From the NCBI GenBank assembly GCA_964574655.1, contig CAZNOH010000002.1, forward strand, positions 172,596-236,595: DNA of 64,000 nucleotides, read 5' to 3'. The stretch is from an uncultured Candidatus Saccharibacteria bacterium. GTDB lineage: Bacteria; Patescibacteriota; JABMPQ01; JAQVVF01. Shown in pieces: positions 22,055-44,947 of the stretch. Each line of letters starts with the position of its first letter. The stretch's first letter is position 1. The notes beneath the pieces are model-generated. The model saw only the letters and a list, made by a program, of their open reading frames with translations, made no database searches and had not been told where the DNA came from. The translations under genes and the position numbers were made by a program.

Positions 22055-22133
22055 TGTCATCCTGAACCGCAGTGAAGGATCCCGTTATTATTATAGAATT
22101 ACGGGATTCTTCGGTTGCGACCTCAGAATGACA
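22055..22133. repeat. Palindromic MITE/REP-like element, copy 1 (TIR TGTCATYCTGA...TCAGAATGACA)
   Basis: Imperfect inverted repeat 'tgtcatcctgaaccgcagtgaaggatcccg' / 'cgggattcttcggttgcgacctcagaatgaca'. Homologous copies at 24527 and 44843. It sits 8 bp upstream of the clpC start codon. Confidence 0.7.
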
Positions 22134-22258
22134 AAATTAATTTAGTTCTTAAGTCTCGATAATCATAGTATAGAATTTACAAAAATTCAAGACTAATTGC
22201 TCAATTGCTAAATTGTTATATAATAAATTTAGCCATAAAAAAAGAGGCAAAATAACCT

Positions 22259-22708
22259 CTAGCTCAAAAAACGCTTCAAAAGATCAACACGTCCTATCAT
22301 TGCAGTAATTTTTTCAAACATTGTTTGACCATTCTTGGCCAAAGCTGTTCCTTGCCAGACTCTTTCTTCTTCTAAATTTCCAACCAGATATCCTCTCGCT
22401 TCATTTAGATATTGTGTGACCTCAATTCGATTCGATGACACAGTAATATTGAATAAGATATAGCTAGTAATTTCTTCCTTGCCTTGTAAATCGGTTCGCT
22501 TCAATATCACCCTTGGATTTTTGCAAGGAAAAATTTTTAGCCAAATCGTCAGAGTCGCACTGCATTCAATTTCGAAAATCAAAGCATCTTCCGTAGTTAC
22601 CTCAAAAAAAGTGCGAACTTGTTCATCCGTCTCAGTAGCTGACAAAGATTTGCAAAGTTGATACAATCTATCAAATTCGTCGTTTAATCGCTCTTCGTGC
22701 TCATTCAT
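22259..22708 (-). CDS. Hypothetical cytoplasmic protein (149 aa; possibly YbjN-like)
   Basis: ORF with acidic N-terminus. No diagnostic motif. Confidence 0.4.
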   Translation of the reverse strand: MNEHEERLNDEFDRLYQLCKSLSATETDEQVRTFFEVTTEDALIFEIECSATLTIWLKIFPCKNPRVILKRTDLQGKEEITSYILFNITVSSNRIEVTQYLNEARGYLVGNLEEERVWQGTALAKNGQTMFEKITAMIGRVDLLKRFLS

Positions 22709-22782
22709 CTCTGACTCCTTTTTGAAAGTAGTATTTAGTAATAATCAATTAATGCTTTAAATAAAGCAAAAGTAGGTATTGA

Positions 22783-23304
22783 TTGCTTATAAATGCTACT
22801 ATCAAGAATACATATTACTATATGTCAAATAAACAATTTTGTCAAGCATTAGATTATTCTCAAAAACTTCTTTCTCAATATCAAAGAACTGTTTTTGAAA
22901 TCAAGGAAAAATTAAAAAAAAAGAATTGCTCGCCAAAGATAATTAACCAAGCCATCAAATATCTTCAAGAAAAAGATTATCTTAACGATCAAGAATATGC
23001 CGAAACATGGTTAGAATTTCAGCTCAAAAATCGTCCATGTGGAAGAATAATTTGTTATAAAAAATTAACGCAGAAAGGCATTTCCAAAAACTTAGCCAGC
23101 CAAATTTTGGCTGAAAACTATTCTGATGAAAAAGAACTAGAGCTAGTAAAAATGTTAGCCCAGAAAAAATGCAGGGACTTTGCATTGCAACGTCTTGGCG
23201 ATAAAAAGAAAAGAATGCTTAAAATAAATTCATATCTGAAAAATAAAGGCTTTTCGGAAAGCATAATTATCCAATATCTTGAAAGTTGTGGGTATTTTAA
23301 TTGA
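22783..23304 (+). CDS. recX: RecX-like regulatory protein
   Basis: Three repeated helical units with 'L..KGIS..L....L' patterns ('YKKLTQKGISKNLASQILAEN'). Alternative start at 22822 (MSNKQ). Confidence 0.55.
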   Translation: MLINATIKNTYYYMSNKQFCQALDYSQKLLSQYQRTVFEIKEKLKKKNCSPKIINQAIKYLQEKDYLNDQEYAETWLEFQLKNRPCGRIICYKKLTQKGISKNLASQILAENYSDEKELELVKMLAQKKCRDFALQRLGDKKKRMLKINSYLKNKGFSESIIIQYLESCGYFN

Positions 23305-23461
23305 TAGATTTTTAATTATTTGCTATAATTATTCTAAGAAATAAGAAACATTCAAAATCAAAAATTAACAAATAAATATCTTTAGCTAAAATCAACAAAT
23401 ATTTTCTAATTTTTTTTGTTTGTGTTTTTAATTTTTGGTATTTAATATTTAATTTTGCTAC

Positions 23462-24514
23462 ATGCAACTTCAAGAGCTTTTAGCTGAAGTCGTAAAACAA
23501 AATGCTTCTGATCTGCATATTACGGTAGGCAAGCCTCCAACGATTAGAGTTAATGATCAGCTAATTCCAATCGCCAATAGAGAAGTAATCACTCCTGAAA
23601 TAGCCGAGAATTTAGTTTTGAGTTTATTAACAAAAGAACAAAAAGATATCCTTTTGCAAGATAAGGAGTTTGATTTTTCTTATGCCTATAGCGATCAAGG
23701 ACGTTTTCGTGTTAACGCTTATTTTCAAAAAAGTTATCTAGCCGCAGCCTTAAGATTGATTCCTGCCAAAGTTAAAACACTTGAAGAATTGAATCTGCCA
23801 GTAGTTTTAAAAAGCTTTGCAGATGCCAAGCAAGGATTCTTTATCGCTTGCGGACCTGCTGGCCATGGAAAAACCACAACAGTAGCAGCAATGATTGACC
23901 ATATTAACAAACAAAGAGCTGATCACATTATTACTATTGAAGATCCAATTGAATATACTTTTATCCAAGACAAATGTTTGATTGACCAGCGTGAAGTTCA
24001 TCTTGATACTCATTCTTTTCCGCAAGCATTGAAATCCTGTCTCCGCCAAGACCCTGATGTCATTTTTGTCGGTGAAATGCGCGACTTAGAAACAATTTCT
24101 ACTGCCGCGACTTTGGCAGAAACTGGCCATTTAGTTTTATCAACTTTGCACACGAATACTGCAGCCGAAACAATAGACCGTATGGTTGGAGTTTTTCCGC
24201 CGCATCAGCAAGAGCAGATTCGTTTCCAGCTTGCCAGCTCTTTGCTCGGCATGATTTCTCAAAGATTAATTCCAAGAATAGACAAGCCAGGCCGAATCGT
24301 TGTCGCTGAAGTTCTAAAAATAAATTCTGCTGCCAGAAATTTAATTCGAGAAGGAAAAACTTATCAATTGAATAATATTATTTTAACAAGCAAGCAAGAA
24401 GGCATGATTTCACTAGATACTTCATTAGCTGAATTAGTAAAATCAAAAATTATTAGCAAAGAAAATGCGTTAGCTTATGCGATTGATCAAAAGAATTTGA
24501 GCATGTTATTATAA
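23462..24514 (+). CDS. pilT: Type IV pilus retraction ATPase PilT
   Basis: Walker A 'GPAGHGKTTT', Asp box 'DVIFVGEMRD', His box. Confidence 0.9.
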   Translation: MQLQELLAEVVKQNASDLHITVGKPPTIRVNDQLIPIANREVITPEIAENLVLSLLTKEQKDILLQDKEFDFSYAYSDQGRFRVNAYFQKSYLAAALRLIPAKVKTLEELNLPVVLKSFADAKQGFFIACGPAGHGKTTTVAAMIDHINKQRADHIITIEDPIEYTFIQDKCLIDQREVHLDTHSFPQALKSCLRQDPDVIFVGEMRDLETISTAATLAETGHLVLSTLHTNTAAETIDRMVGVFPPHQQEQIRFQLASSLLGMISQRLIPRIDKPGRIVVAEVLKINSAARNLIREGKTYQLNNIILTSKQEGMISLDTSLAELVKSKIISKENALAYAIDQKNLSMLL

Positions 24515-24526
24515 TTTTGTCATTCT

Positions 24527-24594
24527 GAACTGCAGTGAAGAATTCCGTAGTTTTCACTTAATAACAGGATCCTTCGCTTCGGCTCAGGATGACA
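24527..24594. repeat. Palindromic MITE/REP-like element, copy 2
   Basis: 'ttgtcattctgaactgcagtgaagaattccg...aggatccttcgcttcggctcaggatgacaa'. Same terminal inverted repeats as copies 1 and 3. Confidence 0.7.
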
Positions 24595-24646
24595 ATAAAT
24601 ACGATTTTAATAAATAAATCTCTTTGAAAGGGGGTGAAAATAGAAA

Positions 24647-25072
24647 ATGTTAAGAAGAAAACAAAAAGGTTTCACTTTGATTGAGTTATTGGTTGTTATT
24701 GCTATTATCGGTATTTTGGCAGCAATCGTCTTCGTTGCTTTAGGAACAGCAAGAAGAAAAGCAAGAGACGCAAGACGCGAATCAGATGTTCGCCAAGTCG
24801 CACTAGCTATGGAATTGTATAATGATGACAATGGCGCCTATATAACAAACGCCGGCCCAGCAGTTCCAGCAATTGGCACATATATGCCAACAGCGCCTTC
24901 AGATCCAGGCTCAGGTAGCTACGTTTGGGTAAGCAATGTTGCTAATGCTCAAGACTATGCAGTTTATTCGACATTAGAAAAAACATGTACAAATACTTGT
25001 TACATGGTAGCAAATCCAAATGGAGTTCAAGAAGTTGATCAAGCAGCTGCACCTACATTAGCACTTCCATAG
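24647..25072 (+). CDS. Type IV pilin (prepilin-type N-terminal cleavage/methylation domain)
   Basis: '[22 protein letters not shown]' class III signal sequence. SD 'aagggggtga'. Confidence 0.88.
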
Positions 25073-25082
25073 TTTTATACTT

Positions 25083-25118
25083 AAACTGGCGGAGCAGAAA
25101 AATGTTCCGCCAGTTTAA
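25083..25118 (+). terminator. Rho-independent terminator after the pilin gene
   Basis: 'actggcggagcagaaaaatgttccgccagttt'. Confidence 0.7.
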
Positions 25119-25206
25119 TGTGCAGTTGATAAAAAATAAAAACCTAAAAATATAAAAATCTAGTTTAGTCAGTTTATTTTTTAGTTCTTTATTTTTTTAG
25201 ATTTTT

Positions 25207-25635
25207 ATGAAAAAACAAAAGGGATTTACTTTGATAGAAATATTGGTAGTTGTCGCCATCATCGGCATTTTAGCATCAATTGCCCTTATAGGCGTTAATG
25301 ATGCTAGAGAAAAAGCTCGAGACGCGCGTCGAGTTTCTGATCTATATCAAATTTCTCAAGCAATAGAAATGTATAACAATGCTTCTGGAATATATCCAGA
25401 AAATTTAGCATCAAATCTTTCTTATTATTTTCCAAAAGGCTTGCCAAAAGATCCAAACCCAAATAATAATTACGATTATATTTATAATGGCTCAAAATGT
25501 TACATCCTGAGAGCAAAGCTAGACAGGAATAATAAAGATGTCCTTAAAAGAGATTTGGATAACGAGATTAGTTGTGGATCATCATTGGATTGCAACGACG
25601 AATCTCTTTATTATTGCGTAGGTAATAACCAATAG
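25207..25635 (+). CDS. Type IV pilin / pseudopilin (second paralog)
   Basis: 'KGFTLIEILVVVAIIGILASIAL' N-terminal motif. Confidence 0.85.
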   Translation: MKKQKGFTLIEILVVVAIIGILASIALIGVNDAREKARDARRVSDLYQISQAIEMYNNASGIYPENLASNLSYYFPKGLPKDPNPNNNYDYIYNGSKCYILRAKLDRNNKDVLKRDLDNEISCGSSLDCNDESLYYCVGNNQ

Positions 25636-25636
25636 T

Positions 25637-26446
25637 ATGTTAATTTTACCAATAATTATAATCTTTGTTTTGGGCCTTGTTGTTGGCAGTTTTTTAAATG
25701 TTGTCATTAATCGGCTAAATATCAATCAAAATTTAGCTTCACCGAGATCCTATTGTCCAAAATGCAAACATCAATTGAATTTTTGGGACTTAATTCCTAT
25801 TTTTAGTTTTATTTTTTTAAGAGGTAAATGTCGTTATTGTCAGAAAAAGATTTCTTGGCAATATCCATTAGTAGAACTTGCAACTGGAATCTCTTTTATA
25901 CTAATCTTTTTTAAATTTGTTAATATCAATAATATTAATTTAGATTTCGTAGTTATTTTAGAACAGCTCCTGATCTATTTCTTTTTTACAAGTATATTAA
26001 TAATAATTTTTGTTTACGATCTAAAGCATTATCTAATTCCAAACAAAATTATTTATCCAGCGATTTTAATCACTTTATTAATTCAGATTTTGCCAATTCC
26101 GGAATATCCAAGTATTTCTATTTCAAGCTTGATCATCGGTTCGTTAATACCAGGAATATTTTTTTTAATTCTTGTCCTTGTTTCTAAAGAAAAATGGATG
26201 GGAGCAGGCGATATAAAGTTAGGTTTTTTAAGCGGTTTGATTGTTGGCTATCCAAATATTTTGGTTACCTTATTCATCTCATTTGTAGTAGGCGCAATCA
26301 TTGGTATTATCCTAATAATCTCAAAGAAAAAGGCTTTAAAAGACAAAATGCCATATGGCACCTTGCTAACTTTCGCGACTTTTGCCACAATTTTGTTTGG
26401 CAGTCAAGTTATTGACTGGTATCTAGGCTTTTTAGGCATAATGTGA
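25637..26446 (+). CDS. pilD: Prepilin peptidase (A24 family) PilD
   Basis: N-terminal zinc-binding CPKC...CRYC, 8 TM helices, conserved Asp residues. Confidence 0.85.
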   Translation: MLILPIIIIFVLGLVVGSFLNVVINRLNINQNLASPRSYCPKCKHQLNFWDLIPIFSFIFLRGKCRYCQKKISWQYPLVELATGISFILIFFKFVNINNINLDFVVILEQLLIYFFFTSILIIIFVYDLKHYLIPNKIIYPAILITLLIQILPIPEYPSISISSLIIGSLIPGIFFLILVLVSKEKWMGAGDIKLGFLSGLIVGYPNILVTLFISFVVGAIIGIILIISKKKALKDKMPYGTLLTFATFATILFGSQVIDWYLGFLGIM

Positions 26447-26533
26447 TACAATATTTTTGTAGATTCGCATATTCGCAACATTTGCATTTATTTGTATATT
26501 CGTATTATATTCAATAAAAAATAAAATAAAAAA

Positions 26534-28075
26534 ATGAACAAACTAAAGTTTTATCTGGCAGGCGTTTTTTGTCTTGCCACAATATTTGGAGTCAGCCACT
26601 TTGTTTCTGCTGCTTCAACCATCTCTGGTAAAATTTTAAGAGAAAATGGCACGCCAGTCTACAATACTACAGTCTATGCCTATAGCGATACTCAAAAATT
26701 TAGTGACGCAACTGATGTAAATGGAGATTATGCTATTAATATTACTGGAACGACTGTTTCTGGTAGCTATACTATTATCACCAGTGGTCAAGTCTCAATT
26801 AGTGATGGGGCCTCAGCTAATTCTTTAGGCTATCACAACGAATATTTTTATTTTCAATCAACGGCAATTACTGTTGTTGATGGAGTAAATCAAAATGGCG
26901 TTAATTTATCTTTAAAACAGCATGGCATGTTATCTGGCAATATTGCCAGCAGTAGCGGTGTGCCAATTTATTATACTAGTATCACTCTATTAAGCAAAAA
27001 TGAAAATTCTGTATTTGGATCTGACTACGCTGATGAAATTGGTAATTATTATGTCACGCCTCTCAAAATTTATGATACTAGAGGTACTCAAAATACTCAA
27101 GGATATTATTATGCTCGAATTTATGCCGCGGGTTATTTACCCAAATATATTGACAATATCCAAATTCTTGATAACCAAACCGCTACTTTAAATATTACTC
27201 TGGTTCGAAATAGCTATGTTTCTGGTCAAATTACTAATAAAAACGGCGCGCCGCTATCTAATATTATTATTAAGGCTTACAAATTAGGTGGCGTTGATGC
27301 CCTGTCTTATGCCACAACTGATCAAAATGGAAATTATCAAATAGAAATTGGCAATACTTTAAATACCTACGGTTATGACTATTATGGAGAATATACTGCT
27401 GTTGGTAAATATACAATTGAAGTTAGTCCCAATGACGCTTCTGGTTATGCCAAAAAAACCAAAAAAATAACCATCAGTTCTGACGAATCAGCTCTCTCGG
27501 GTGTTAATTTTAAGCTTTCCGCAAAAAGAGGTTCTCTTTCGGGCAGAATTTTAACGGCTAAGAAAAAAGCAATAAATGGCGCTTTAGTTAAAATTTACCT
27601 TCTAAAAGATCCAACCGTTTACGCCCAAAGCTATACTGATGCTTCTGGAAATTATAGTTTTTCAGAGTTGCCAACGGGCAATTATTATTTAAGCATTGTT
27701 AAAAGCAATTACGCATTTAAAGAAATTGCCAAATTAAAGATTAAAGGCCATAAAACCAAAAACTATAAACTAGGCCCGGCTGGCGTGATTTCAGGCTATG
27801 TTTTTGATAGCGTAACTAAAAAACCGCTTAGTAGTATTGCAGTTCGCCTTATAGGCTCCGATCTGACTAGTTGGACCAACACTTATGGTTATTATAAAAT
27901 TAATTATGTCCCAACCGGCAAAAGAAAAGTTTTTGTCAAAGAGGTTGCTTATGCCGAACAATTTTATTTAAAAGCAACAACAGCTGTAAAATCTAAAAAA
28001 ATAAAAGTCAAAAAAGGCAAGGAATCAAAGAATGTCAATTTTTATTTAACTCCATTTTCAAGAATTTATAAATAA
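26534..28075 (+). CDS. Secreted protein with repeated CarboxypepD_reg/Cna-B-like beta-sandwich domains
   Basis: Signal peptide. Repeated 'G.V.d..t..Pl..a.V.l....GnY.f..lp.G.Y' patterns ('SGYVFDSVTKKPLSSIAVRL', 'GNYYLSIVKSNY'). Confidence 0.55.
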   Translation: MNKLKFYLAGVFCLATIFGVSHFVSAASTISGKILRENGTPVYNTTVYAYSDTQKFSDATDVNGDYAINITGTTVSGSYTIITSGQVSISDGASANSLGYHNEYFYFQSTAITVVDGVNQNGVNLSLKQHGMLSGNIASSSGVPIYYTSITLLSKNENSVFGSDYADEIGNYYVTPLKIYDTRGTQNTQGYYYARIYAAGYLPKYIDNIQILDNQTATLNITLVRNSYVSGQITNKNGAPLSNIIIKAYKLGGVDALSYATTDQNGNYQIEIGNTLNTYGYDYYGEYTAVGKYTIEVSPNDASGYAKKTKKITISSDESALSGVNFKLSAKRGSLSGRILTAKKKAINGALVKIYLLKDPTVYAQSYTDASGNYSFSELPTGNYYLSIVKSNYAFKEIAKLKIKGHKTKNYKLGPAGVISGYVFDSVTKKPLSSIAVRLIGSDLTSWTNTYGYYKINYVPTGKRKVFVKEVAYAEQFYLKATTAVKSKKIKVKKGKESKNVNFYLTPFSRIYK

Positions 28076-28113
28076 TCGCGAATTTACACAAATTTAGCAC
28101 AAACAGCACAAAT

Positions 28114-28142
28114 AAAAACGAGATTCAATTCTCGTTTTTATT
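28114..28142 (+). terminator. Rho-independent terminator
   Basis: 'aaaacgagattcaattctcgttttta'. Confidence 0.65.
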
Positions 28143-28173
28143 ATTTGTGAAATTTGTGTAGAATTTGTGAAAA

Positions 28174-29061
28174 TTAGAGATTATTTATTTCAATCATTCT
28201 ATTGGCATGATTATTTCCACTCACATTGACTTCAAAATAATGATAATAGCTATCATCGCTTTTCATAAAATCATATTGAGGCAACGATCCAGCACTTCCG
28301 ACAATCGTCATTGTTATGCTTTGAAGATTAAACGGAAAATACATGTGCAGATGTCCAGAATAAACTTCTTTCACATTATTTTTTACGTCATTAATAATTT
28401 CATAAAATTTTTCATAGCTGGCAAAAGTTTGTTTTGTTCCGCCATCATTGATTTCAAAAACATCTTCAAAAGGAATTTTAGTTGGTCTATGCATAAAAAT
28501 AAAAGTCGGGTATTTATTCACGCTTAAATCTTTAGTTAGCCAATCAAGTTGTTCATCAGAAAATCCTTCCAAATTCCAAGAATTATCTAAAATAACAAAA
28601 TGATTTTCTTCATAATCAAAAGATTGATATAGATTTTTATAATAATTCAAAAAAATTGATTTATTCTGTTCATCTTGCAAAATATCATGATTGCCAGGTA
28701 CAACATAATACGGAATATCTAAATTTTTGGCCATGTAATTTCTAAATTCCTCAAATTCTTTAGCCGTGCCATTTTGCGTAAAATCTCCTAAATGAACAAA
28801 AAATTTAGCATTGCCTTGATTAACCTTTTCAACTATTTTTTTATAAATTTGATTTAAATCATCACCTTCTCGTCCTGAATCAGAAGCAACAGCAAAAGTA
28901 AAATCTGTTTCATTAGAAACAAAATTTTTAATTTTATCAGTCAAATTCGCTTTGTTTACGGAATTATCAAGCTTTGGTTTTAAATAATATATATAAAAAC
29001 CAACTAAAAGAAGCAAGCTTAAAATTAACGCTAAAATAAAACAAGAAATATGCTTTTTCAT
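28174..29061 (-). CDS. Calcineurin-like metallophosphoesterase (membrane anchored)
   Basis: Motifs 'FAVASDSG', 'HLGDF', 'VPGNHD' and 'GHLH'. Confidence 0.8.
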   Translation of the reverse strand: MKKHISCFILALILSLLLLVGFYIYYLKPKLDNSVNKANLTDKIKNFVSNETDFTFAVASDSGREGDDLNQIYKKIVEKVNQGNAKFFVHLGDFTQNGTAKEFEEFRNYMAKNLDIPYYVVPGNHDILQDEQNKSIFLNYYKNLYQSFDYEENHFVILDNSWNLEGFSDEQLDWLTKDLSVNKYPTFIFMHRPTKIPFEDVFEINDGGTKQTFASYEKFYEIINDVKNNVKEVYSGHLHMYFPFNLQSITMTIVGSAGSLPQYDFMKSDDSYYHYFEVNVSGNNHANRMIEINNL

Positions 29062-29391: not shown

Positions 29392-29397
29392 AATAAC

Positions 29398-33301: not shown

Positions 33302-33592
33302 ATGCCAGACATAATTACAAAACAGGAAGTCGAGAAAGTCGCAAAACTAGCGCGCATTAAAATTACCGAGCCAGAAAAAGAAAAATTCGCCAAGCAATTG
33401 ACAAGCATTTTAGATTACGTTAATCAGCTTTCTGAAGTTGATACAAAAAATGTTCAGCCAACTAGCCAAGTTACAGAATTAAATAATGTAATGCGTGCTG
33501 ATGAGGTCAAGAGTTATGAAAATAAAGTTCAATTAATCGAAAGCGCGCCAGAAAGCATAGACAATCAAATTAGAGTCAAAAGCATTCTATAA
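33302..33592 (+). CDS. gatC: Glutamyl/aspartyl-tRNA amidotransferase subunit C
   Basis: 96 aa, 'ITKQEVEKVAKLARIKITEPE...LDYVNQL', typical GatC. Confidence 0.85.
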   Translation: MPDIITKQEVEKVAKLARIKITEPEKEKFAKQLTSILDYVNQLSEVDTKNVQPTSQVTELNNVMRADEVKSYENKVQLIESAPESIDNQIRVKSIL

Positions 33593-33731
33593 TTTCGAAT
33601 TTTGAATTTAGAATTTTAAATCAATTTCGAAATCAGAATTTTTAATTTAAAAAACTATTACGTTCCGGAATTTAGAATTTAGTCATTTAAAATTTATTTA
33701 AAATTTGAAATTTAGAATTCAAAATTAAAAT

Positions 33732-35147
33732 ATGTTAAACAAACTCAATCTTACCGATTTATCCGCCAAACTTCAGAGAAAAGAAATTTCTTCTTTTCAA
33801 TTAGTTTCTGATTGTCTGAAAGAGATAAAAGAGCAAGACCAAAAAATTGGCGCTTTTTTAGAAGTCTTTGAAGAAGATGCGATCAATCAAGCTAAAGAAA
33901 TTGATAAAAAAGAAAAACTAGGACCATTGGAAGGAATTCCGATTGCTATAAAAGATGCAATATTGGTTAAAGGTAAAAAAAATACTTGTGGCTCAAAAAT
34001 ATTAGAGAATTATATTGCCTCTTATGATGCGACTGCTGTCAAAAAATTGAAAGATGCTGGTATGATTATTATAGGTAAAACAAATATGGACGAATTTGCC
34101 ATGGGCTCTTCAACTGAAACTTCTGCATATCATCAAACCAAAAATCCAGTTAATTTAGAATATGTTCCTGGCGGATCATCAGGTGGATCAGTTGCTTCTG
34201 TTTCCGCAAATTTTGTTCCAGTCTCATTGGGTTCTGATACTGGCGGATCAATTCGTCAGCCAGCTGCATTCTGCGGAGTTTACGGACTTAAACCAACTTA
34301 CGGCCGAGTTAGTCGTTTTGGATTATCAGCTCTAGCCTCAAGTTTCGATTGCATCGGTCCATTTGCCAGATCAGCCGAAGATTGCGCTTGGATTTTTTCT
34401 GCGATTGCAGGATCAGATCCTAAAGATTCAACATCGTCAAAGTTAGATACTCAAGATCTAATTAATCAAACTTTTCCAGTAATTAAGGGCCTAAAAATTG
34501 GCCTGCCAAAAGAATGTTTTGGCGAGGGCGTAAATTCAGAGGTTAAAGAAAAAGTTAATTTAGCCATTAAAAAATTAGAAAAACTGGGAGCAAAAATTCA
34601 AGAAGTTAGCTTGCCGTATTCCAAATATGCCTTAGCAGTTTATTATATTTTACTTCCAGCCGAAGCTTCAGCAAATCTAGCTCGTTTTGATGGAGTTCGT
34701 TACGGCTACTCTTCAAAATCAGATGATCTAATTTCTAATTATTTAGAAACAAGAGCCCAAGGCTTTGGCGATGAAGTAAAAAGAAGAATAATGCTCGGCA
34801 CCTATATCTTGTCAGCTGGTTATTATGATGCCTATTACAAAAAAGCTCAGAAAGTTAGGACAAAAGTCATCGAAGATTACAAAAAAGTTTTTGAAAAAGT
34901 CGATCTTTTAGCAACGCCAACAACTCCGACAACAGCTTTTAAATTTGGCGAAAATTCAGATGATCCAGTTGCGATGTACATGAATGATATTTTGACAGTT
35001 TCAGCTAATGTTGCCGGTGTTCCAGCCATCTCAATACCTTGTGGTTTTGATAGTAAAAAATTGCCAGTTGGCTTACAGCTAATTGCCAACCATTTTGAAG
35101 AAACAAAATTATTGCAAGCAGCAAAAGCATATGAAACATTAAAATAA
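33732..35147 (+). CDS. gatA: Glutamyl/aspartyl-tRNA amidotransferase subunit A (amidase signature family)
   Basis: Amidase signature 'GGSSGGSVASVSA...GSDTGGSIRQPA'. 471 aa. Confidence 0.9.
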   Translation: MLNKLNLTDLSAKLQRKEISSFQLVSDCLKEIKEQDQKIGAFLEVFEEDAINQAKEIDKKEKLGPLEGIPIAIKDAILVKGKKNTCGSKILENYIASYDATAVKKLKDAGMIIIGKTNMDEFAMGSSTETSAYHQTKNPVNLEYVPGGSSGGSVASVSANFVPVSLGSDTGGSIRQPAAFCGVYGLKPTYGRVSRFGLSALASSFDCIGPFARSAEDCAWIFSAIAGSDPKDSTSSKLDTQDLINQTFPVIKGLKIGLPKECFGEGVNSEVKEKVNLAIKKLEKLGAKIQEVSLPYSKYALAVYYILLPAEASANLARFDGVRYGYSSKSDDLISNYLETRAQGFGDEVKRRIMLGTYILSAGYYDAYYKKAQKVRTKVIEDYKKVFEKVDLLATPTTPTTAFKFGENSDDPVAMYMNDILTVSANVAGVPAISIPCGFDSKKLPVGLQLIANHFEETKLLQAAKAYETLK

Positions 35148-37346: not shown

Positions 37347-37538
37347 ATGCCAAAAAAAACCTTAACAACAACAACAACAAAGATTTCAACAAAAACAGCT
37401 CGTTATACAGCAATTGCTACCTCTGCCTTAGTTTTATTAGGAATATTAGCTGGTTTTTCTTACGGAATGTTTATTAAATACAAGGGTCAAAAAAATCAAA
37501 AAACAGCAGAAAAATTTTTCCAACAATATATTAAATAA
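37347..37538 (+). CDS. Small single-TM protein, hypothetical
   Basis: 63 aa with TM 'AIATSALVLLGILAGFSYGMFI'. Confidence 0.4.
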   Translation: MPKKTLTTTTTKISTKTARYTAIATSALVLLGILAGFSYGMFIKYKGQKNQKTAEKFFQQYIK

Positions 37539-37624
37539 ATTAAAAAATTGTTCAATTGTTAAATTGTTAACATAGTTGTTAATATTTTAACAATTTAACC
37601 ATTTAGCAATTAAACAATTTAGCT

Positions 37625-38074
37625 ATGTTGAAAGAACAAATTAACAAAGACTTAATTACTGCTTTGAAAGCCAAAGAGCAGGCCAAAACATCAATTTTAA
37701 GGCTTATTAATTCAGAAATAAAAAACGAAGAAATCGCCAAGAAAAAAAGAGAGCAAGGTTTGACAGATGAAGAAACGCAAGCTGTTATTACTCGCCAAGT
37801 CAAACAAATCAATGACTCCATTGAATCCTTCAAGGCTGGAGAAAGAGAAGACCTGATCAAAGAAGAAGAACAAAAATTAGCAATATTGAAAGTTTATTTA
37901 CCAAAACAAATAGAATCTGCTGATGTGGAAAAAATTGTTGACGAGATTATCGCCCAAATAAAACCGCAAGGTCCAAAAGATTTCGGCAAAGTCATGGGAG
38001 CTGTCATGGCCAAAGTCAAAGGCAAAGCCGATGGCAAGGTAGTGAATGAATTAGTTAAAAAAAAACTAGGCTAA
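37625..38074 (+). CDS. GatB/YqeY domain-containing protein
   Basis: 149 aa; 'LKEQINKDLITALKAKE...LRLINSEIKN...YLPKQ' typical YqeY-like helical domain. Confidence 0.75.
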   Translation: MLKEQINKDLITALKAKEQAKTSILRLINSEIKNEEIAKKKREQGLTDEETQAVITRQVKQINDSIESFKAGEREDLIKEEEQKLAILKVYLPKQIESADVEKIVDEIIAQIKPQGPKDFGKVMGAVMAKVKGKADGKVVNELVKKKLG

Positions 38075-38078
38075 ATTA

Positions 38079-38645: not shown

Positions 38646-39234
38646 AAAAGCAAAAATTAAAGACATTATAAAAATTCCTAACATTTTAACTTGTATTAGG
38701 ATTGGAATCTCTTTAACAATAATCACCTTATTTTTTACTGACAATCATATTTGGCTTGTAAAATGGCTTTTTGTTGTTGGCATTTTGACTGATACCTTAG
38801 ATGGCAATATAGCGCGACTTTTTAATCAAAAAACAAGATTAGGAGTTATGTTAGAACCAATTGCTGATACCTTGCTAGTTGCAGGAACAGTATTGTTCGT
38901 TACTTTTAGGCTTGATCTGCCCAAGCTAATCTTTATGATTTACGTTGCTGTAGTATTTGTTGGATTTTTAGGAATTGTACTAGTTTATTTAATCAGAAGA
39001 GAATGGTTTGCCAATAAATTAGTTGTTTCAGAGATTGCTATTGTTTTTGTTTATGCAACTGGTATTTTCTATCTTTTTGGCTTTCCGTTCAAAAATTATT
39101 TAGCTTTATTTACTATCGGTTTTGGCATTGCCGCCTTGATTGATTTGATAATCAAGCTCAAAAAATTTAAAGGCCGTGCAAAATTCAAGTTAGAAAAACT
39201 TCAGAACAGCAAAGATTTCAAAATGTTAGACTAA
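38629..39234 (+). CDS. CDP-alcohol phosphatidyltransferase family protein (tandem paralog)
   Basis: 'DTLDGNIARLFNQKTRLGVMLEPIAD', a motif variant with Glu at the third acidic position. Confidence 0.7.
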   Translation: MQRKNEKAKIKDIIKIPNILTCIRIGISLTIITLFFTDNHIWLVKWLFVVGILTDTLDGNIARLFNQKTRLGVMLEPIADTLLVAGTVLFVTFRLDLPKLIFMIYVAVVFVGFLGIVLVYLIRREWFANKLVVSEIAIVFVYATGIFYLFGFPFKNYLALFTIGFGIAALIDLIIKLKKFKGRAKFKLEKLQNSKDFKMLD

Positions 39235-39238
39235 TGTC

Positions 39239-40336
39239 ATGCAAAAATCTCCTAACAAAATAATCTTACTTGGCACGCTATTAATTATTCTAGCAATTAT
39301 TGGAATTATTTTTTTTACCAAAAGCAACAAAAAATCTGTTGCTGAAGATGGAATAATAATTGACCTAACCTCATCAAAAAAAGACCAAAAACAAAGTGAA
39401 AAAAAAGTAGAAGAAAATCCAGAAATCAATTTGACAGCAGTTGGCGATATTATTCTGTCTAGAACTGTCGGTGTAAAAATAAAAGAATCTGGCGATAATT
39501 CTTTGCCATTTCGAAAAGTTAGCAATATTTTATCGCAAGGTGATATTACTTTTGGAAATTTGGAAGCGCCATTTTATAATCAAGGCGAATTAATTAAAGA
39601 AGGCATGACATTTAAAGCCGAGCCAGAATTTATAGAAGGCATTAAGTTAGCAGGCTTTGATGTTATGTCATTAGCTAATAATCATACCAAAAATCAAGGG
39701 TCAGAAGGTTTATTATTTACTTTTAATTTATTAAATCAAAATAATATCAAGTTTTGCGGCGCCGGCAAAAATTTTCAAGAAGCTCATCAGCCTGCTATTT
39801 TAGAAAGCAAAGGCAAAAAGTTCGCATTCTTAGCCTACACTTATTCTGATGGCATTGACTTTGAAACTCACTTGGGCGAGAATGAACCAGACGTTGCTTT
39901 TTGGGATGCTAATCAGGCAAAAATTGATATTGCCCAAGCAAAAACTCAGGCGGATTCGGTTATAGTTTATATGCATGCTGGACAAGAATATTCTCCCAAG
40001 CCAATTCAAGATCAAATCAATTTTGCTCACTCAGCAATTGATAATGGCGCAGATTTAGTTCTCGGGTCTCATCCGCATTGGGTTGAAACAACCGAAAAAT
40101 ATAAAGATAAATATATAATTTATTCAATGGGTAATTTTGTTTTTGATCAAGAATGGTCGCAGGAAACCAAAGAAGGAGTTATCGTAAAATTAAAATATAA
40201 AGATAACAGATTTAGCCAAGCCGAATTTATTCCAGTTATTATAGAAAATTTTAATCAGCCAAGAGTAGCTAATGATGCAGAAAAAAATAAAATATTTAAT
40301 CAGATGGAACTAAAAAGTTCAGTTGTCAATTTCTAG
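39239..40336 (+). CDS. capA: CapA/PGA_cap family metallophosphatase-like protein (poly-gamma-glutamate/capsule synthesis type)
   Basis: N-terminal TM, 'LTAVGDIILSR', 'ANNHTKNQG', 'MHAGQEYS...GSHPHW' motifs. Confidence 0.75.
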   Translation: MQKSPNKIILLGTLLIILAIIGIIFFTKSNKKSVAEDGIIIDLTSSKKDQKQSEKKVEENPEINLTAVGDIILSRTVGVKIKESGDNSLPFRKVSNILSQGDITFGNLEAPFYNQGELIKEGMTFKAEPEFIEGIKLAGFDVMSLANNHTKNQGSEGLLFTFNLLNQNNIKFCGAGKNFQEAHQPAILESKGKKFAFLAYTYSDGIDFETHLGENEPDVAFWDANQAKIDIAQAKTQADSVIVYMHAGQEYSPKPIQDQINFAHSAIDNGADLVLGSHPHWVETTEKYKDKYIIYSMGNFVFDQEWSQETKEGVIVKLKYKDNRFSQAEFIPVIIENFNQPRVANDAEKNKIFNQMELKSSVVNF

Positions 40337-40343
40337 ATAAATA

Positions 40344-40372
40344 AAAAAATCATCGTGTCGATGATTTATAAA
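40344..40372. terminator. Bidirectional terminator between convergent genes
   Basis: 'aaaaaaatcatcgtgtcgatgatttataaaa'. Confidence 0.6.
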
Positions 40373-40925
40373 AAGGTTCAAAAAGATCAGGATATTTCAG
40401 TAAAATGAAAAGAGTATCAGGATCACCGTAATCAACCATTCTTAAGCATCTTGTTTGATCATAACAGAAATTAGAAAGATCAGAAAAATGATGAGTTATT
40501 GTGCTCGTTATTGGAACATTGTCTGCTCCAAGCTTGCTTTTCAAGCGTTTCCAAAGATCATCGTAAAGACTTCTATCATCTATTTTACAAGGAAAGCCTC
40601 TTCGTTGAATATTTACTACACCAATGGAAAAATAAGTTGGCATCATATTTTCTTTTCTAAATCGCAGATAATACCAAAATTCCCGGCAATTAATAATTAA
40701 ACCATTAAAAAGATAATATCTTGCACCATCTTTAATAGATAAAGGATCATTCAAAAACCCTTTTAATGTATTACAAAAAGCTTTAAATTTATATATACCA
40801 GAAATCAAAAGTTGCAATTGAGATTTTATTTCTCGAAACACAAAATCTATTCTGATAAAAGCAATTTTGAATGCGAAAGGTCCAACCAGTATTACAATTC
40901 GCCAGCTGCCTCTCTTTATCTTCAT
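40350..40925 (-). CDS. Hypothetical protein (191 aa), divergent from the por operon
   Basis: ORF with SD 'aggagg' upstream. No family recognised. Confidence 0.45.
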   Translation of the reverse strand: MKIKRGSWRIVILVGPFAFKIAFIRIDFVFREIKSQLQLLISGIYKFKAFCNTLKGFLNDPLSIKDGARYYLFNGLIINCREFWYYLRFRKENMMPTYFSIGVVNIQRRGFPCKIDDRSLYDDLWKRLKSKLGADNVPITSTITHHFSDLSNFCYDQTRCLRMVDYGDPDTLFILLKYPDLFEPFYKSSTR

Positions 40926-40997
40926 ATCTCTCCTCCTTCAAATTGTAGGGTGCGAATCACTCAAATCTATCAAAATTTAATCTTAAAGTCAATTCTC

Positions 40998-41576
40998 ATG
41001 CAAAATATTTTCGAAATTAGAATTCACGCTCGAGCTCAACAAGGCGCCAACACCATTGCTCATTTTTTTGCTGAAAGCATTATTAATTCTGGCAAGTATG
41101 CTCAAGCTTTTCCATACTTCGGGCCAGAAAGATCAGGCTCTCCGTTAGCTGCATTCATCAGAATTTCTGATGAGCCGATCAGAATTTATTCTCAGGTTTA
41201 CAATCCAAATATTTCAGTTGTTATCGACCAAACTTTATTAAGCACAGAAAATGTCGCCAAAAATTTTACAGAAAAACAAATGGTTTTAGTTAATTCTTCT
41301 AAATCAAGCGATGATATCCGTGAGATTCTAAAGAGCGATGCAAAATTTTATTCAATTGATGCAAATGTTATTTCAAAAGAAATCTTTGGCAAAACAATCC
41401 CAAATACTATTTTGCTTGGTGCGTTGATTAAAGTTTTAGAAATTAATAATCAAAAGTTTATCAGTTTAGATAATATAATTGAAACAATCAACAAAGAATT
41501 TCCAGCCAGATATGGACAAGAGATGACAGAAAAAAACTTGCAGGCAGTAAAAGCTGGTTATGATGGAATAAAATAA
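40998..41576 (+). CDS. porG: 2-oxoacid:ferredoxin oxidoreductase gamma subunit
   Basis: 'IRIHARAQQGANTIAHFFAESIINSGKYAQAFPYFGPERSG' typical of POR/KOR gamma. ORF-track start at 40812 is an upstream extension. Confidence 0.8.
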   Translation: MQNIFEIRIHARAQQGANTIAHFFAESIINSGKYAQAFPYFGPERSGSPLAAFIRISDEPIRIYSQVYNPNISVVIDQTLLSTENVAKNFTEKQMVLVNSSKSSDDIREILKSDAKFYSIDANVISKEIFGKTIPNTILLGALIKVLEINNQKFISLDNIIETINKEFPARYGQEMTEKNLQAVKAGYDGIK

Positions 41577-41593
41577 TTTAAAATTATAAATTT

Positions 41594-41854
41594 ATGTCAG
41601 ATTTACATATTGGTGCCAAAATAATTACGCCGGGATCATCAAAAGAAAACAAGACTGGTTCATGGAAATTGCAAGTTCCAATCGTTGACAAAAAAAAGTG
41701 CGTTAATTGTTTGACTTGCGTTCAATATTGTCCAGAAAATTGCATCAAAGCAAAAGATGATAAATTAGATTATATTGATTTGAATTATTGCAAAGGTTGT
41801 GGAATTTGTGCTCATGAATGTCCGAGCAAAGCAATAACAATGAAGCAACAATAA
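41594..41854 (+). CDS. porD: 2-oxoacid:ferredoxin oxidoreductase delta subunit (2x[4Fe-4S] ferredoxin)
   Basis: Two CxxCxxCxxxCP motifs. Confidence 0.85.
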   Translation: MSDLHIGAKIITPGSSKENKTGSWKLQVPIVDKKKCVNCLTCVQYCPENCIKAKDDKLDYIDLNYCKGCGICAHECPSKAITMKQQ

Positions 41855-41864
41855 AAATTAATTT

Positions 41865-43028
41865 ATGAATAACCAAAAATTTAAAGCAATTACAGGTTCT
41901 CAAACTGCCGTTGAATCAATGCGCCAAATTAATCCTGACGTTGTTTCAATTTATCCAATTTGTCCGCAGACATTTATCATCGAATTTTTTTCCAAACTCG
42001 TTGCTGATGGCAAAGTTAACACAAAAGTGATCTACGCTGAATCCGAACATTCAGTCATGTCTGCTTGCGTCGGCGCATCTGCCTCTGGAGCAAGAACTAT
42101 AACTTCAACTGCATCATTAGGCTTAGCTTTAATGTGGGAAGTCTTGGGAGTGGCATCCGGTTTTCGTTTGCCAATTGTTATGCATTTGGTCATGCGCGCT
42201 TTGTCTGCTCCAATTAACATCCATAGTGATCATTCAGATGCTATGGGAGCAAGAGATACTGGCTGGATCCAATTATTTTGTGGCAATAATCAAGAAGTTT
42301 ATGATTTTTCGATCATTGCTCAAAGATTAGCTGAAAAATTATTCTTGCCAATAATGGTTTGCCAGGATGGTTTTACAACTTCTCATAGCGTTGAAAAAAC
42401 TTTTATTTTGGAAGATAATGACGTCAAAAATTTTGTCGGTGAATTCAAACCAGATCGCCCGCTTTTAGATGTCGCAAATCCGACAACTTATGGTCCGTTG
42501 TCATTGCCAAATACTTTCACTGAAATAAAAAAACAGCAATTTGAAGTTTATAAAAAAGTTGGACAGGAATTTTTAGAGATCGGTTCAGAATTATCAAAAT
42601 TAACTAATCGAAAATATAATTTAATTGAAGAATATAAAACAGAGGACGCCGACACAATTATAATTTTACTTGCTTCAACTGCATCAACCGCCAAAGTTGT
42701 TGTTGACGAATTAAGAGAACAAGGCCAAAAAGTTGGTCTTGTCAGGCCAATAATGTTTCGTCCATTTCCTTATCAAGAAATTGCTAGCAGTTTAGCAAAT
42801 GCAAAAAAAATTGCAGTCTTGGATCGATCGATCGCTTTTGGTGCCATGCCTCCATTATATTCCGATGTCATGATATCTTTAAGTTTTACAAAATTAAAAC
42901 CGCAGGTAGCATCATATATTTACGGTTTAGGCGGACATGATACAGTAATAAATGATATAAAAAAAGTTTTTCAAGATTTACAAGAAAATAAATTTTTGCC
43001 AACATCTCAGTTTTTATATGAAAAATAA
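41865..43028 (+). CDS. porA: 2-oxoacid:ferredoxin oxidoreductase alpha subunit
   Basis: 387 aa with POR_N and transketolase-C-like domains. Confidence 0.8.
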   Translation: MNNQKFKAITGSQTAVESMRQINPDVVSIYPICPQTFIIEFFSKLVADGKVNTKVIYAESEHSVMSACVGASASGARTITSTASLGLALMWEVLGVASGFRLPIVMHLVMRALSAPINIHSDHSDAMGARDTGWIQLFCGNNQEVYDFSIIAQRLAEKLFLPIMVCQDGFTTSHSVEKTFILEDNDVKNFVGEFKPDRPLLDVANPTTYGPLSLPNTFTEIKKQQFEVYKKVGQEFLEIGSELSKLTNRKYNLIEEYKTEDADTIIILLASTASTAKVVVDELREQGQKVGLVRPIMFRPFPYQEIASSLANAKKIAVLDRSIAFGAMPPLYSDVMISLSFTKLKPQVASYIYGLGGHDTVINDIKKVFQDLQENKFLPTSQFLYEK

Positions 43029-43767
43029 TTTCCAAGAACCGCCATTAATCATTGCCCACAGAGGAGCATCATCTTACGCTTTTGAAAATACGCTAGATTC
43101 ATTCAGAAAAGCTTGTGCTTTTGGCGCGGACATGATTGAGCTAGATATCAGAGTTACAAAAGACAATGAACTCATAGTTTTTCATGATTCAGCAATTGAT
43201 CGCATGACTGATGGCTCTGGACTAGTCCAATATTTTACCTTAGCTGATCTAAAAAAAATAAAAATCCATGGAGAAGCAATTCCAACATTGGAAGAAGTTA
43301 TTAAAATTACACTTGGCAAAACAAATTACAATTTTGAAGTAAAAAATATTCCTTTAGAATGCATTGATAAATTAATCGCGCTCTTAGATAAATATGATCT
43401 ACGTTACAAAGTAATTATTTCATCATTCAACAGAAAAATAATTTTAAGAGTTAGAGAAATTGATCGACAGATCAAAATTGCCTTGCTTTGCTGGCAATTA
43501 CGCAAAAACAATCTCAAATTTTTGCAAAAAAATGATCTAAATTACGTCCATCCATATTATGGATTTTTAACCAGAAAGAAAATAAAACAAGTCCATGATT
43601 TAGGAATTAAAATTAATACATGGACTGTTAATTGGTCTCTTGATCTAAAATGGGTGATGGAATTAGGAGTTAATGGAATAATTACCAATCGGCCAGATAT
43701 GGCAAAGGCAGTGTTAGGGAAGTTAAATCGTGAGAAGACAACTGTTATAAAAAACTCTAAATCCTAA
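43018..43767 (+). CDS. Glycerophosphodiester phosphodiesterase (GDPD family)
   Basis: 'IIAHRGASSYAFENTLDSF...MIELDIRVTKDNELIVFHD' GDPD catalytic motifs. Overlaps the porA stop by 11 bp. Confidence 0.85.
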   Translation: MKNNFQEPPLIIAHRGASSYAFENTLDSFRKACAFGADMIELDIRVTKDNELIVFHDSAIDRMTDGSGLVQYFTLADLKKIKIHGEAIPTLEEVIKITLGKTNYNFEVKNIPLECIDKLIALLDKYDLRYKVIISSFNRKIILRVREIDRQIKIALLCWQLRKNNLKFLQKNDLNYVHPYYGFLTRKKIKQVHDLGIKINTWTVNWSLDLKWVMELGVNGIITNRPDMAKAVLGKLNREKTTVIKNSKS

Positions 43768-43867
43768 ATTCTAAATAAATTTAAAATCAAAATGATCAAA
43801 ATTAAAAATCGACATCAAATTTTAATTTTTGTATTTTACCATTTGAATTTATTTAGGATTTAGAGTT
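43753..43867. repeat. AT-rich long inverted repeat (17-bp perfect core AACTCTAAATCCTAAAT / ATTTAGGATTTAGAGTT, arms extend to ~27 bp)
   Basis: Perfect reverse-complement arms about 80 bp apart, in the GDPD-porB spacer. Confidence 0.7.
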
Positions 43868-43888
43868 TAGAATTTTTATTAAACCATT

Positions 43889-44836
43889 ATGATTACTTTA
43901 AAAGAAATTTGCAAGAAACCGAACCCATTAGAATCCGGCCACGGCACCTGCCGCGGCTGTACTGCAATCCCGCAAATAATTAGGACAATTTTGAAAGCAT
44001 CAGACAAGCCAGCTATCGTTGCCAATGCCACAGGCTGTATGGAAGTAACAACCACAATTTATCCGACAACTTCTTGGAATGTGCCATGGATTCATTCAAC
44101 TTTTGAAGCAGTTGGAGCTTTGATTTCTGGAGTTGAAACAGCCCACAGAGCCTTGTTAAACAAAACAATACATGATGCATCAGGCAAAGAATTTAGAGTT
44201 GAAGATTGCAATTTTATTGCTTTTGCAGGGGACGGAGGATCTTATGATATTGGGTTGCAAGCCTTATCTGGAATGTTAGAAAGAGGGCACAACTGTCTTT
44301 TTGTTTGCTATGACAATGAAGCTTATATGAATACTGGCGTACAACGTTCAAGTGCTACTCCTTTTGGGGCTACAACTTCAACAACTCCAGATGGCAAAGA
44401 ACATCATGGCAAGGAAGAAAAAAGAAAAAATTTAACTAAAATTGCAATAGCTCATGACATTCCATACGTTGCTCAAGCAGCAGTTTCTCATTGGCAGGAT
44501 TTGTATGAAAAAGCAAGCAAGGCCTTCAAAATTAAAGGTCCAAAATTTATCAATGTTTTAGCGCCTTGTACTTTAGGTTGGGGATTTAAAGAAAATTTAG
44601 GAATAGAAATTTCTCGTCTCGGTGTTGAAACAAATTTCTGGCCTCTTTATGAAGTTGAAAATGGCCAATACAAAATTAATTATAAGTCAGAACAAAGAAA
44701 GCCAATTGAGGAATTCTTAAAACCGCAAAAAAGATTCGCCCATTTATTTGAAGAGAATAACAAGCACATAATTTCTGTCATGCAAAAAAATATTGATGAA
44801 GAATGGGAAAGACTAACTAAAAATATAAAAAACTAA
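43889..44836 (+). CDS. porB: 2-oxoacid:ferredoxin oxidoreductase beta subunit (TPP-binding)
   Basis: 'GHGTCRGCTAIPQI' and the TPP-binding fold motif 'GDGGSYDIG'. Confidence 0.85.
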   Translation: MITLKEICKKPNPLESGHGTCRGCTAIPQIIRTILKASDKPAIVANATGCMEVTTTIYPTTSWNVPWIHSTFEAVGALISGVETAHRALLNKTIHDASGKEFRVEDCNFIAFAGDGGSYDIGLQALSGMLERGHNCLFVCYDNEAYMNTGVQRSSATPFGATTSTTPDGKEHHGKEEKRKNLTKIAIAHDIPYVAQAAVSHWQDLYEKASKAFKIKGPKFINVLAPCTLGWGFKENLGIEISRLGVETNFWPLYEVENGQYKINYKSEQRKPIEEFLKPQKRFAHLFEENNKHIISVMQKNIDEEWERLTKNIKN

Positions 44837-44842
44837 AAAAAT

Positions 44843-44947
44843 TTGTCATCCTAAGCCGAAGCGAAGGATTCCGTTATCTATTGGAATAATCACGGGATTC
44901 TTCACTGGTTAAATTTATTGGCACCAATAAATTTAACCAGAATGACA
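44843..44947. repeat. Palindromic MITE/REP-like element, copy 3 (with a nested internal palindrome)
   Basis: 'ttgtcatcctaagccgaagcgaaggattccg...cgggattcttcactgg-[ttaaatttattggcaccaataaatttaa]-ccagaatgacaa'. Confidence 0.7.

Follow-up and report, generated by a model that had tools for sequence, protein, structure and literature searches.

Three palindromic elements lie between genes in a 64,000-nucleotide stretch of an uncultured Candidatus Saccharibacteria genome (contig CAZNOH010000002.1, positions 172,596 to 236,595; hereafter the window): one next to a ClpC-like gene, one between pilT and a pilin gene, and one after a gene for a thiamine pyrophosphate (TPP)-binding, PorB-like protein (copies 1, 2, and 3, respectively). 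Alignment of their six halves showed each element to be built from one ~30-nt unit, or arm, present as an inverted pair; the arm consists of the tag TGTC, the palindrome ATYCT GA (loop) GA AGRAT, and a tail of C or T followed by CCGT. Our analysis indicates that these elements probably represent a TGTC subtype of the superfamily formed by the CGTC-tagged repetitive extragenic palindromic (REP) sequences and the Ssn-related motifs (SRMs), that is, a new member of this superfamily in Patescibacteria and not a new class. The arm-gene-arm linkage described below and the homology of the linked protein to the gonococcal SsnA orthologue suggest that the TGTC repeat is, for a sister clade of Ssn nucleases, the counterpart of the Neisseria repeat NTS.

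TGTC arms flank genes for Ssn-type GIY-YIG nucleases

SsnA, a single-domain GIY-YIG nuclease of 94 aa, targets the dRS3-containing repeat NTS (CGTCATTCCCGCGMAVGCGGGAATCYRG): it binds NTS as single-stranded DNA only, leaves its RNA form unbound, and cleaves a few nucleotides upstream (Chenal et al. 2025, PMC11893778). The C just 3' of the palindrome is most critical for binding and the three bases 5' of the palindrome for cleavage; the loop is dispensable and extendable. The same study reported that Ssn homologues in many bacteria are flanked by SRMs in the layout NTS-ssnA-NTS and that the NTS/SsnA pair lowers transformation of N. meningitidis by NTS-containing DNA.

In one element-bearing locus (L038), a small GIY-YIG open reading frame (ORF) adjoins a TGTC dimer. 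Its product had 1969 homologues at E <= 1e-5, of ~100-111 aa with Pfam domain PF01541, mostly encoded on very short contigs. TGTC arms were present on both sides of the gene in all five independent homologue loci fetched (L038, L254, L255, L256-261, and the Planktothrix locus L263). In the first four, one arm lay 50-80 nt upstream and another overlapped the stop codon, often with an inverted arm after it. Further linked genes were sought by tblastn in a plasmid collection, which also includes some mislabelled chromosomes: the Planktothrix plasmid gene (63% identity) is bracketed by TGTC dimers of both arm types, and a homologue gene in Azospirillum lipoferum is bracketed by CGTC-ATCCCCGC repeats. 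One of the linked proteins, P0185, matched the sole 94-aa GIY-YIG gene of N. gonorrhoeae (46% in tblastn, E 4e-19; 52% in blastp, E 6e-29), and PF01541 was found in both proteins. Y6, Y17, and E64, which were mutated in PMC11893778, are all present in the gonococcal gene. NTS repeats surround this gene, with one starting at the stop codon, the same layout as that of the TGTC-linked genes.

All-versus-all clustering of ORFs from 160 element-bearing loci did not reveal this link, and only phage structural proteins of related viral contigs recurred, because the scattered copies do not lie beside the nuclease gene; the link emerged when the search started from the protein. Scans of viral contigs for more Ssn homologues returned L038 again and one fragment only, and NCBIfam and PDB sequence searches with the Ssn-like proteins gave no matches.

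Two further observations concern these loci. In L254-L261 (proteins P0167, P0185, and P0196), the stop codon lies inside the 3' arm, as the TGA of TCTGAG or of GAATGACA, so the Ssn-like C-termini are repeat-encoded (e.g., ...RDSSLRSE). The Planktothrix locus, on the Planktothrix agardhii plasmid NZ_LR882964 (17347-20616), places its Ssn-like gene in a defence island, between an MmeI-type restriction-modification gene and the DISARM gene drmA.

The hairpin within each arm is the conserved structure

We examined covariation in 175 distinct dimers, focusing on arm position 7 (Y) and its partner (R), which the search pattern left unconstrained. Within-arm pairing of position 7 held in 290 of 293 arms (T-A 151, C-G 139), and the two arms of a dimer were of the same type in 65 cases and of different types in 67 (132 dimers). 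Since within-arm pairing is nearly invariant while arm types match only about half the time, selection keeps the hairpin inside each arm and not the long hairpin of the whole palindrome, which contains mismatches in half of the dimers and in each of the three window copies. Covariation extends to the inner 2-bp stem (GC 53, AU 11, GU 3; CG 62, UA 4, UG 2); outer-stem counts in that alignment are fixed by construction and were therefore disregarded. In the commonest loop region, GA-GCGNAGC-GA, tandem G.A mismatches surround a GNA triloop. The oligonucleotide d(GCGNAGC) is a notably stable DNA mini-hairpin, and these loops hint at a single-stranded DNA form.

The positions that matter most to SsnA are largely retained. 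A C directly follows the palindrome in 256 of 258 arms of other taxa, at a base that neither search nor parse constrained; among the window arms, GTC directly precedes the palindrome in 6/6 (TGTC + ATYCT) and C directly follows it in 4/6.

Anatomy and gene context of the window elements

The window elements and associated features are listed in Table 1. The elements are 79-106 nt long with near-perfect terminal inverted repeats of 11-12 nt, and each pairs one ATTCT/AGAAT (T-type) arm with one ATCCT/AGGAT (C-type) arm. TGTCATYCTRA occurs exactly only at the six expected ends, as three inverted pairs, and one-mismatch matches elsewhere in the window amount to two unrelated sites. The left arm of copy 3 has AA in place of GA, and a perfect 15-bp hairpin is nested in its right arm. 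Whole-element RNA folds reached -29 to -40 kcal/mol, with z-scores of -5.4 to -7.3 against shuffles; for the left arm of copy 1, the minimum-energy DNA fold is the arm hairpin.

Table 1. Window elements, their arms, and associated features (window positions unless a relative's locus is named)
Feature	Position	Strand	Description	Match to model R1
Copy 1	22054-22134	no strand	Dimer of two TGTC-tagged hairpin arms, tags outward, ~19-nt spacer; in 5' leader of ClpC-like gene	
Copy 1 left arm, C-type	22055-22083	+	TGTC ATCCT GA-ACCGCAGT-GA AGGAT C	33.1 bits, E 7e-7
Copy 1 right arm, T-type	22103-22133	-	TGTC ATTCT GA-GGTCGCAACC-GA AGAAT C	30.1 bits, E 5e-6
Promoter-like site TTGAAT-17-TATGAT	22162-22190	-	Upstream of copy 1 and clpC; -35 region invariant in alignment with relatives	
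Terminator-like hairpin and T-run	22243-22260	-	Ends upstream gene (22259-22708, minus strand)	
Copy 2	24517-24595	no strand	Dimer in pilT-pilin spacer, 2 nt past PilT stop codon	
Copy 2 left arm, T-type	24518-24546	+	TGTC ATTCT GA-ACTGCAGT-GA AGAAT T	24.7 bits, E 1.5e-4
Copy 2 right arm, C-type	24566-24594	-	TGTC ATCCT GA-GCCGAAGC-GA AGGAT C	33.7 bits, E 5e-7
Copy 3	44843-44948	no strand	Dimer, 6 nt past stop of TPP-binding (PorB-like) gene	
Copy 3 left arm, C-type	44844-44872	+	TGTC ATCCT AA-GCCGAAGC-GA AGGAT T	19.5 bits, E 4e-3
Copy 3 right arm, T-type	44894-44947	-	Long perfect hairpin in place of loop	Missed owing to insertion
Nested perfect palindrome	44907-44938	no strand	GGTTAAATTTATTGG-CA-CCAATAAATTTAACC; occupies loop position of copy 3 right arm	
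GTAG/CTAC palindrome	L162 11054-11111 region; L163/L164 about 2553-2643		At copy 2 site in relatives	

The ClpC-like AAA+ gene (19546-22047, minus strand) has its ATG 7 nt from copy 1. The PilT gene (23462-24514) is followed by two pilins, with a pilin gene at 24647 after copy 2, and the PorB-like gene (43889-44836) lies upstream of copy 3. A promoter-like site upstream and the terminator-like hairpin of the preceding gene place copy 1 within the transcribed clpC 5' leader.

An earlier note on this DNA had described three intergenic palindromic elements with common termini, an inner core, two loop types, and a nested perfect palindrome in copy 3. The elements, the core (GAAGRATYCCG / CGGRATYCTTC), the loop types, the nested palindrome, and the clpC, pilT-pilin, and porB neighbours were all recovered, with copy 2 starting at 24517/24518 and not at 24527 (a 10-nt slip). 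The common termini hold as TGTCATYCTRA at the six ends but not in full, since the left end of copy 1 reads ATGTCAT instead of TTGTCAT and the right end of copy 3 reads TCTGG instead of TCTGA. The sequence agrees with the proposal of a clpC leader formed by copy 1, given the conserved promoter-like site upstream and the lack of the insertion in relatives.

The repeat is widespread but patchy

A pattern scan that required only the two 11-nt ends matched at least 120 loci in species-representative genomes and 40 viral contigs, and the unit was present in at least 15 bacterial phyla besides the viral contigs. The matches listed included Bacteroidota isolates (Hymenobacter, Chryseobacterium, Flavobacterium, Pedobacter, and Mucilaginibacter), Chloroflexota, Acidobacteriota, Nitrospirota, Alpha-, Gamma-, and Deltaproteobacteria, Firmicutes, Planctomycetota, Gemmatimonadota, Omnitrophota, Armatimonadota, Synergistota, and two Patescibacteria, and the host G+C of element-bearing loci ranged from 0.34 to 0.67. 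The earlier note had held that chance similarity would be indicated if no further copies existed; copies in so many phyla decisively show otherwise.

A covariance model (R1) built from 68 arms of other organisms recovered five of the six arms in the window, with E-values from 5e-7 to 4e-3; all its other matches in the 64 kb had E > 0.3. That a model from unrelated organisms recognises these arms, together with the fold z-scores, shows that the copies are not present by chance. Elsewhere, arms were arranged as 169 tags-out dimers, 28 tags-in dimers, and 69 solo arms, in a sample selected for tags-out dimers, and in three loci (L014, L029, and L035) four or five dimers stand in tandem. The base before GTC is T in 459 of 474 arms of other loci, although the search pattern imposed this T in ~350 of them.

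In contrast to this breadth, no arm of the TGTC type was found in 742 kb of loci chosen irrespective of the element; these came from a metagenome scan with the PorB-like protein (relatives of <=56% identity), in which the orthologous site of copy 3 was sought. The family is thus widespread yet patchy, and three dimers in 64 kb constitute a high density. A blastn search of plasmids and phages with the consensus dimer yielded nothing at E <= 0.01, full-text literature searches with the arm sequence returned unrelated primers only, and a scan of 50 kb of S. meliloti pSymB for CGTC REPs gave random hairpins only.

Copies are gained and lost between close relatives

We compared the window with syntenic contigs of relatives sharing 80-94% PilT identity. 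Copy 1 is missing at the same site in L162, L165, and L166; relative to these, the window has gained ATCTACA, the element, and AAATTAAT between the clpC ATG and the conserved upstream sequence, with apparently 7-8 additional nucleotides on either side of copy 1. The site of copy 2 showed five or six different states across the window and its relatives. L165 carries a TGTC dimer with quite different arm-loop hairpins, including a loop insert that resembles that of copy 3, and L162-164 (93% PilT identity) have, exactly at the copy 2 site, a ~75-nt palindrome of GTAG/CTAC units (GAGTAGTATGTAGCAGGTAGTAAGTAG...CTACTTTCTACTTTCTACTTGCTAC). A 109-aa ORF occupies the spacer in L249/250 and an AT-rich palindrome in L252, and L166/167 have nothing there. 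The pilT-pilin spacer is a hot spot. No TGTC arm was present in the 21 kb of L162.

Alternative explanations

The earlier description of the elements as MITE/REP-like, with arms that serve as terminal inverted repeats, was right as to the REP-like character and the inverted arrangement. Each arm is, however, a self-contained tagged hairpin conserved within itself, and the MITE-like part fared poorly. A classical miniature inverted-repeat transposable element (MITE), that is, a non-autonomous deletion derivative of an insertion sequence (IS) with a DDE transposase, moved by cut-and-paste through its terminal inverted repeats, would explain the near-perfect ends, the small size, and the intergenic sites. 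Nevertheless, 174 dimers showed no 2-8 bp target-site duplication above shuffled controls at any boundary offset, no transposase recurred among the 160 loci that bear the element, no longer version with a transposase between such ends was found, and arms also occur alone, tags-in, and in tandem, with conservation that tracks the hairpin in each arm. We regard this explanation as extremely improbable. One widely spaced arm pair, the only one of its kind (L126), was considered as a mobile element and rejected: it encloses the housekeeping genes prs, prfB, and pth and no transposase.

The lack of target-site duplications would equally suit a REPIN-type element moved, like the GTAG REPs, by a RAYT, an IS200/IS605-like Y1 HUH enzyme. 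The architecture is also the same, namely a tagged imperfect palindrome in inverted dimers, clusters, and tandem arrays, with GCGNAGC loops typical of stable single-stranded DNA mini-hairpins. The tag is TGTC and not GTAG, however, and a tblastn search of the window and the 160 loci with an IS200 TnpA probe found no Y1 transposase, which is a weak test. Besides phage structural genes no gene recurs, CGTC repeats flank no transposase (PMC3733652), and the gene actually bracketed by arms encodes a GIY-YIG nuclease. Movement by a RAYT is accordingly very unlikely.

It is also conceivable, although rather unlikely in our estimate, that the elements act primarily as RNA, as transcribed hairpins that stabilise or terminate 3' ends after pilT and porB and control translation or stability in the clpC leader, with their biology as DNA repeats being secondary. 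The strong whole-element RNA folds would suit such a role, as would the positions of copies 2 and 3 just past stop codons and of copy 1 between a conserved promoter-like site and the clpC ATG. Dimers in the wider sample also lie nearer to stops (median 35 nt) than to starts (median 91 nt), based on crude ORF calls, and many REPs are considered to be transcribed (Di Nocera et al. 2013, PMC3733652). Yet selection acts on the within-arm hairpin, and half of the dimers are heterotypic and thus mismatched in the long fold. Dimers look much the same from either strand, and the order of the arms with respect to transcription is reversed between copies 2 and 3. Copies 1 and 2 lack a following T-run, and a terminator scan reported none of the three. 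Rfam 15, searched at gathering and E-value thresholds with the window and 16 loci with canonical copies, yielded only tRNAs, with generic miRNA-like hairpins below threshold. In addition, the RNA form of NTS is not bound by SsnA (PMC11893778), and relatives manage without copy 1.

A proposed target of Ssn-type nucleases

By homology with the Neisseria system, an arm of the TGTC subtype would act as single-stranded DNA and fold into a hairpin, and a small single-domain GIY-YIG nuclease (Ssn) would bind the folded arm and cut a few nucleotides 5' of the tag. The loop, unread by the nuclease, would be free to vary or to carry insertions. The repeats flank the nuclease gene in an IS-like manner (arm-ssn-arm), lie scattered elsewhere as solo dimers, and come and go among close relatives with no target duplication; any influence on nearby genes, for example through the hairpin in the clpC leader, would be a by-product. 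By analogy, we infer that these Patescibacteria copies are bound or cut by such a nuclease, and likewise their mode of spread.

Several points weigh against assigning the elements to this system. Binding and cleavage of the TGTC subtype are predicted from homology with Neisseria, and membership of the linked protein in cd10448 is deduced from homology and size. The SRM string HGTCWYN(0-2)YYVSBRHN(0-5)WNVSBRGN(0-2)RNCYNB, which is the search tool of PMC11893778 and no functional definition, matched NTS as a control and failed to match the canonical TGTC arm or any window site. Single arms fold with just -1.1 to -3.6 kcal/mol (nearest-neighbour DNA parameters), no better than shuffles, against a much stronger fold of the entire dimer into a single long hairpin; the case for the arm hairpin thus comes from comparison and not from thermodynamics. 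The left arms of copies 2 and 3 have T after the palindrome in place of the usual, SsnA-critical C, and some copies may have decayed. Finally, neither the 64-kb window nor the loci of the relatives yielded an Ssn-type gene. The 78-aa product of the window's sole GIY-YIG ORF (17222-17458, minus strand) comes from another, shorter subfamily and is missing the LIExxNPxW segment found at the C-terminus of Ssn proteins; no TGTC arms adjoin the ORF.

A different reading of the same linkage is that the TGTC hairpin and its own Ssn-like clade constitute a distinct system, shared across phyla and phages and undercounted by SRM surveys, which in Patescibacteria could modulate the incorporation of single-stranded DNA as NTS/SsnA does. 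We consider this unlikely, and a bolder variant would make the 78-aa GIY-YIG protein the nuclease partner in these genomes. Patescibacteria rely on type IV pilus-based DNA uptake, and in the window copy 2 lies in the variable pilT-pilin spacer and copy 1 in the clpC leader.

The 78-aa GIY-YIG gene has a conserved setting of its own. It lies directly downstream of a tRNA-Ser gene (window 17222-17672, minus strand), and conserved G+C-rich hairpins (CGTCTTCGCCCGCCGAAGC...GCGAAGGCGGGA and GACGGACaaaGTCCGTC) stand between the two. The same arrangement occurs in other genomes of the candidate phyla radiation (CPR) (L266/L267, about 3560-4237; L268-L277), in differing chromosomal contexts and with differing tRNA-Ser isoacceptors, and looks like a mobile or tRNA-targeted cassette. 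The protein family is widespread in CPR, with 885 homologues at E <= 1e-3.

Assigning the window elements to the TGTC subtype of the superfamily turns a seemingly undescribed repeat into a prediction, namely that its hairpins are single-stranded DNA targets of a small GIY-YIG nuclease, and reveals one repeat subtype common to very distant phyla and phage contigs. The 2025 Ssn survey probably left the TGTC subtype uncounted; since the SRM string misses the TGTC arm, the true spread of Ssn and its hairpins may exceed that reported. Copy 1, a strong hairpin close to the clpC start that relatives lack, offers a natural experiment on leader structure.

The repeats also affect sequence data. A Logan contig with this ClpC (L001, SRR13723394) ends within copy 2, and most Ssn-like homologues lie on contigs of 0.5-2 kb; TGTC repeats evidently break metagenome assemblies. 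Spurious short ORFs moreover arise from the arms, encoding peptides like VILSEAKNP, HSERSEESP, and SFRMTG (L126).

Other repeats in the window

A second dispersed family comprises AT-rich intergenic palindromes of ~140 nt with AATTT/AAATT-type units (7195-7345, 33578-33740, and 43740-43888), one of which immediately precedes the PorB-like gene that has copy 3 at its 3' end. Further long intergenic inverted repeats (1826-1919, 28068-28188, and 37536-37621) have arms of 39-51 nt that are 79-91% complementary, with sequences unrelated to the TGTC elements. A tandem-duplicated cassette of small genes (18467-19540), missing at the syntenic position in L162 and L165, contains two paralogous ORFs of 142 and 135 aa; each ORF has its own copy of a 72-nt leader with TTGACAAT in front and of a 44-nt terminator-like hairpin behind. 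In addition, a 1328-aa CBM/Y_Y_Y-domain protein (45824-49810) has three to four internal 282-nt repeats (46775-47529 and 48193-48372).

Comparison with known systems

Correia/NEMIS, RUP, and Nezha MITEs are, like the TGTC elements, small, palindromic, and intergenic, and can alter the expression of neighbours, as the TGTC elements may, but they have target-site duplications and parent insertion sequences, and the TGTC elements have neither. GTAG REPs, BIMEs, and REPINs resemble the TGTC elements in being tagged single-stranded DNA hairpins in inverted dimers able to form a long hairpin, clustered, intergenic, and free of target duplication. The TGTC subtype differs from GTAG REPs and REPINs in its tag and in its partner, a GIY-YIG nuclease as opposed to the HUH Y1 transposase RAYT.

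The view that no described family has these termini proved wrong at the superfamily level, since Di Nocera et al. (2013, PMC3733652) defined a superfamily of CGTC-tagged REPs with four families (CGTC-1 to CGTC-4), whose tag, "changed to TGTC in many repeats", can also be CCTC, and dRS3/NTS was treated in PMC11893778. According to the 2013 study, the stem begins with AT and has 8-9 bp, the loop has 4-5 nt, and the unpaired tail is ~CCA; the repeats are mainly inverted dimers, frequently heterodimers, and no transposase gene is flanked by them. Neisseria dRS3 is family CGTC-1, Rickettsia RPE-4 and RPE-6 are also members, and Patescibacteria are not among the phyla listed. We compared the TGTC arms with these four families through their textual description. 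The arms agree in having TGTC and AT throughout, a tail starting with C, inverted dimers that are often hetero (67 hetero, 65 homo), and no flanking transposase. They differ in a stem broken by G.A mismatches, in a tail of C plus variable bases (CTC, CTG, or CCC), and, in the window, in longer loops. The commonest arm, ATYCT-GA-GC-GNA-GC-GA-AGRAT, has nine stem positions provided that both G.A pairs count. In a Parcubacteria locus (L098, 1757-1786), a dRS3-like arm, TGTC ATTCCCCC...GGGGAAAT CC, lies 10 nt from a canonical TGTC-ATCCT arm, which indicates that two subtypes of the superfamily can share one CPR genome.

Relative to NTS and the SRMs, the tag is TGTC and not CGTC, the stem consists of 5 bp, a tandem G.A, and 2 bp in place of a perfect G+C-rich stem of 8 bp, and the hosts also include Patescibacteria, Firmicutes, and Chloroflexota, along with viral contigs. 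What the TGTC arms have in common with NTS and the SRMs is GTC 5' of a palindrome that starts with AT, C 3' of it, a variable or dispensable loop, and, besides scattered copies, arms on both sides of a gene for a single-domain GIY-YIG protein of ~100 aa, one of them at its stop codon.

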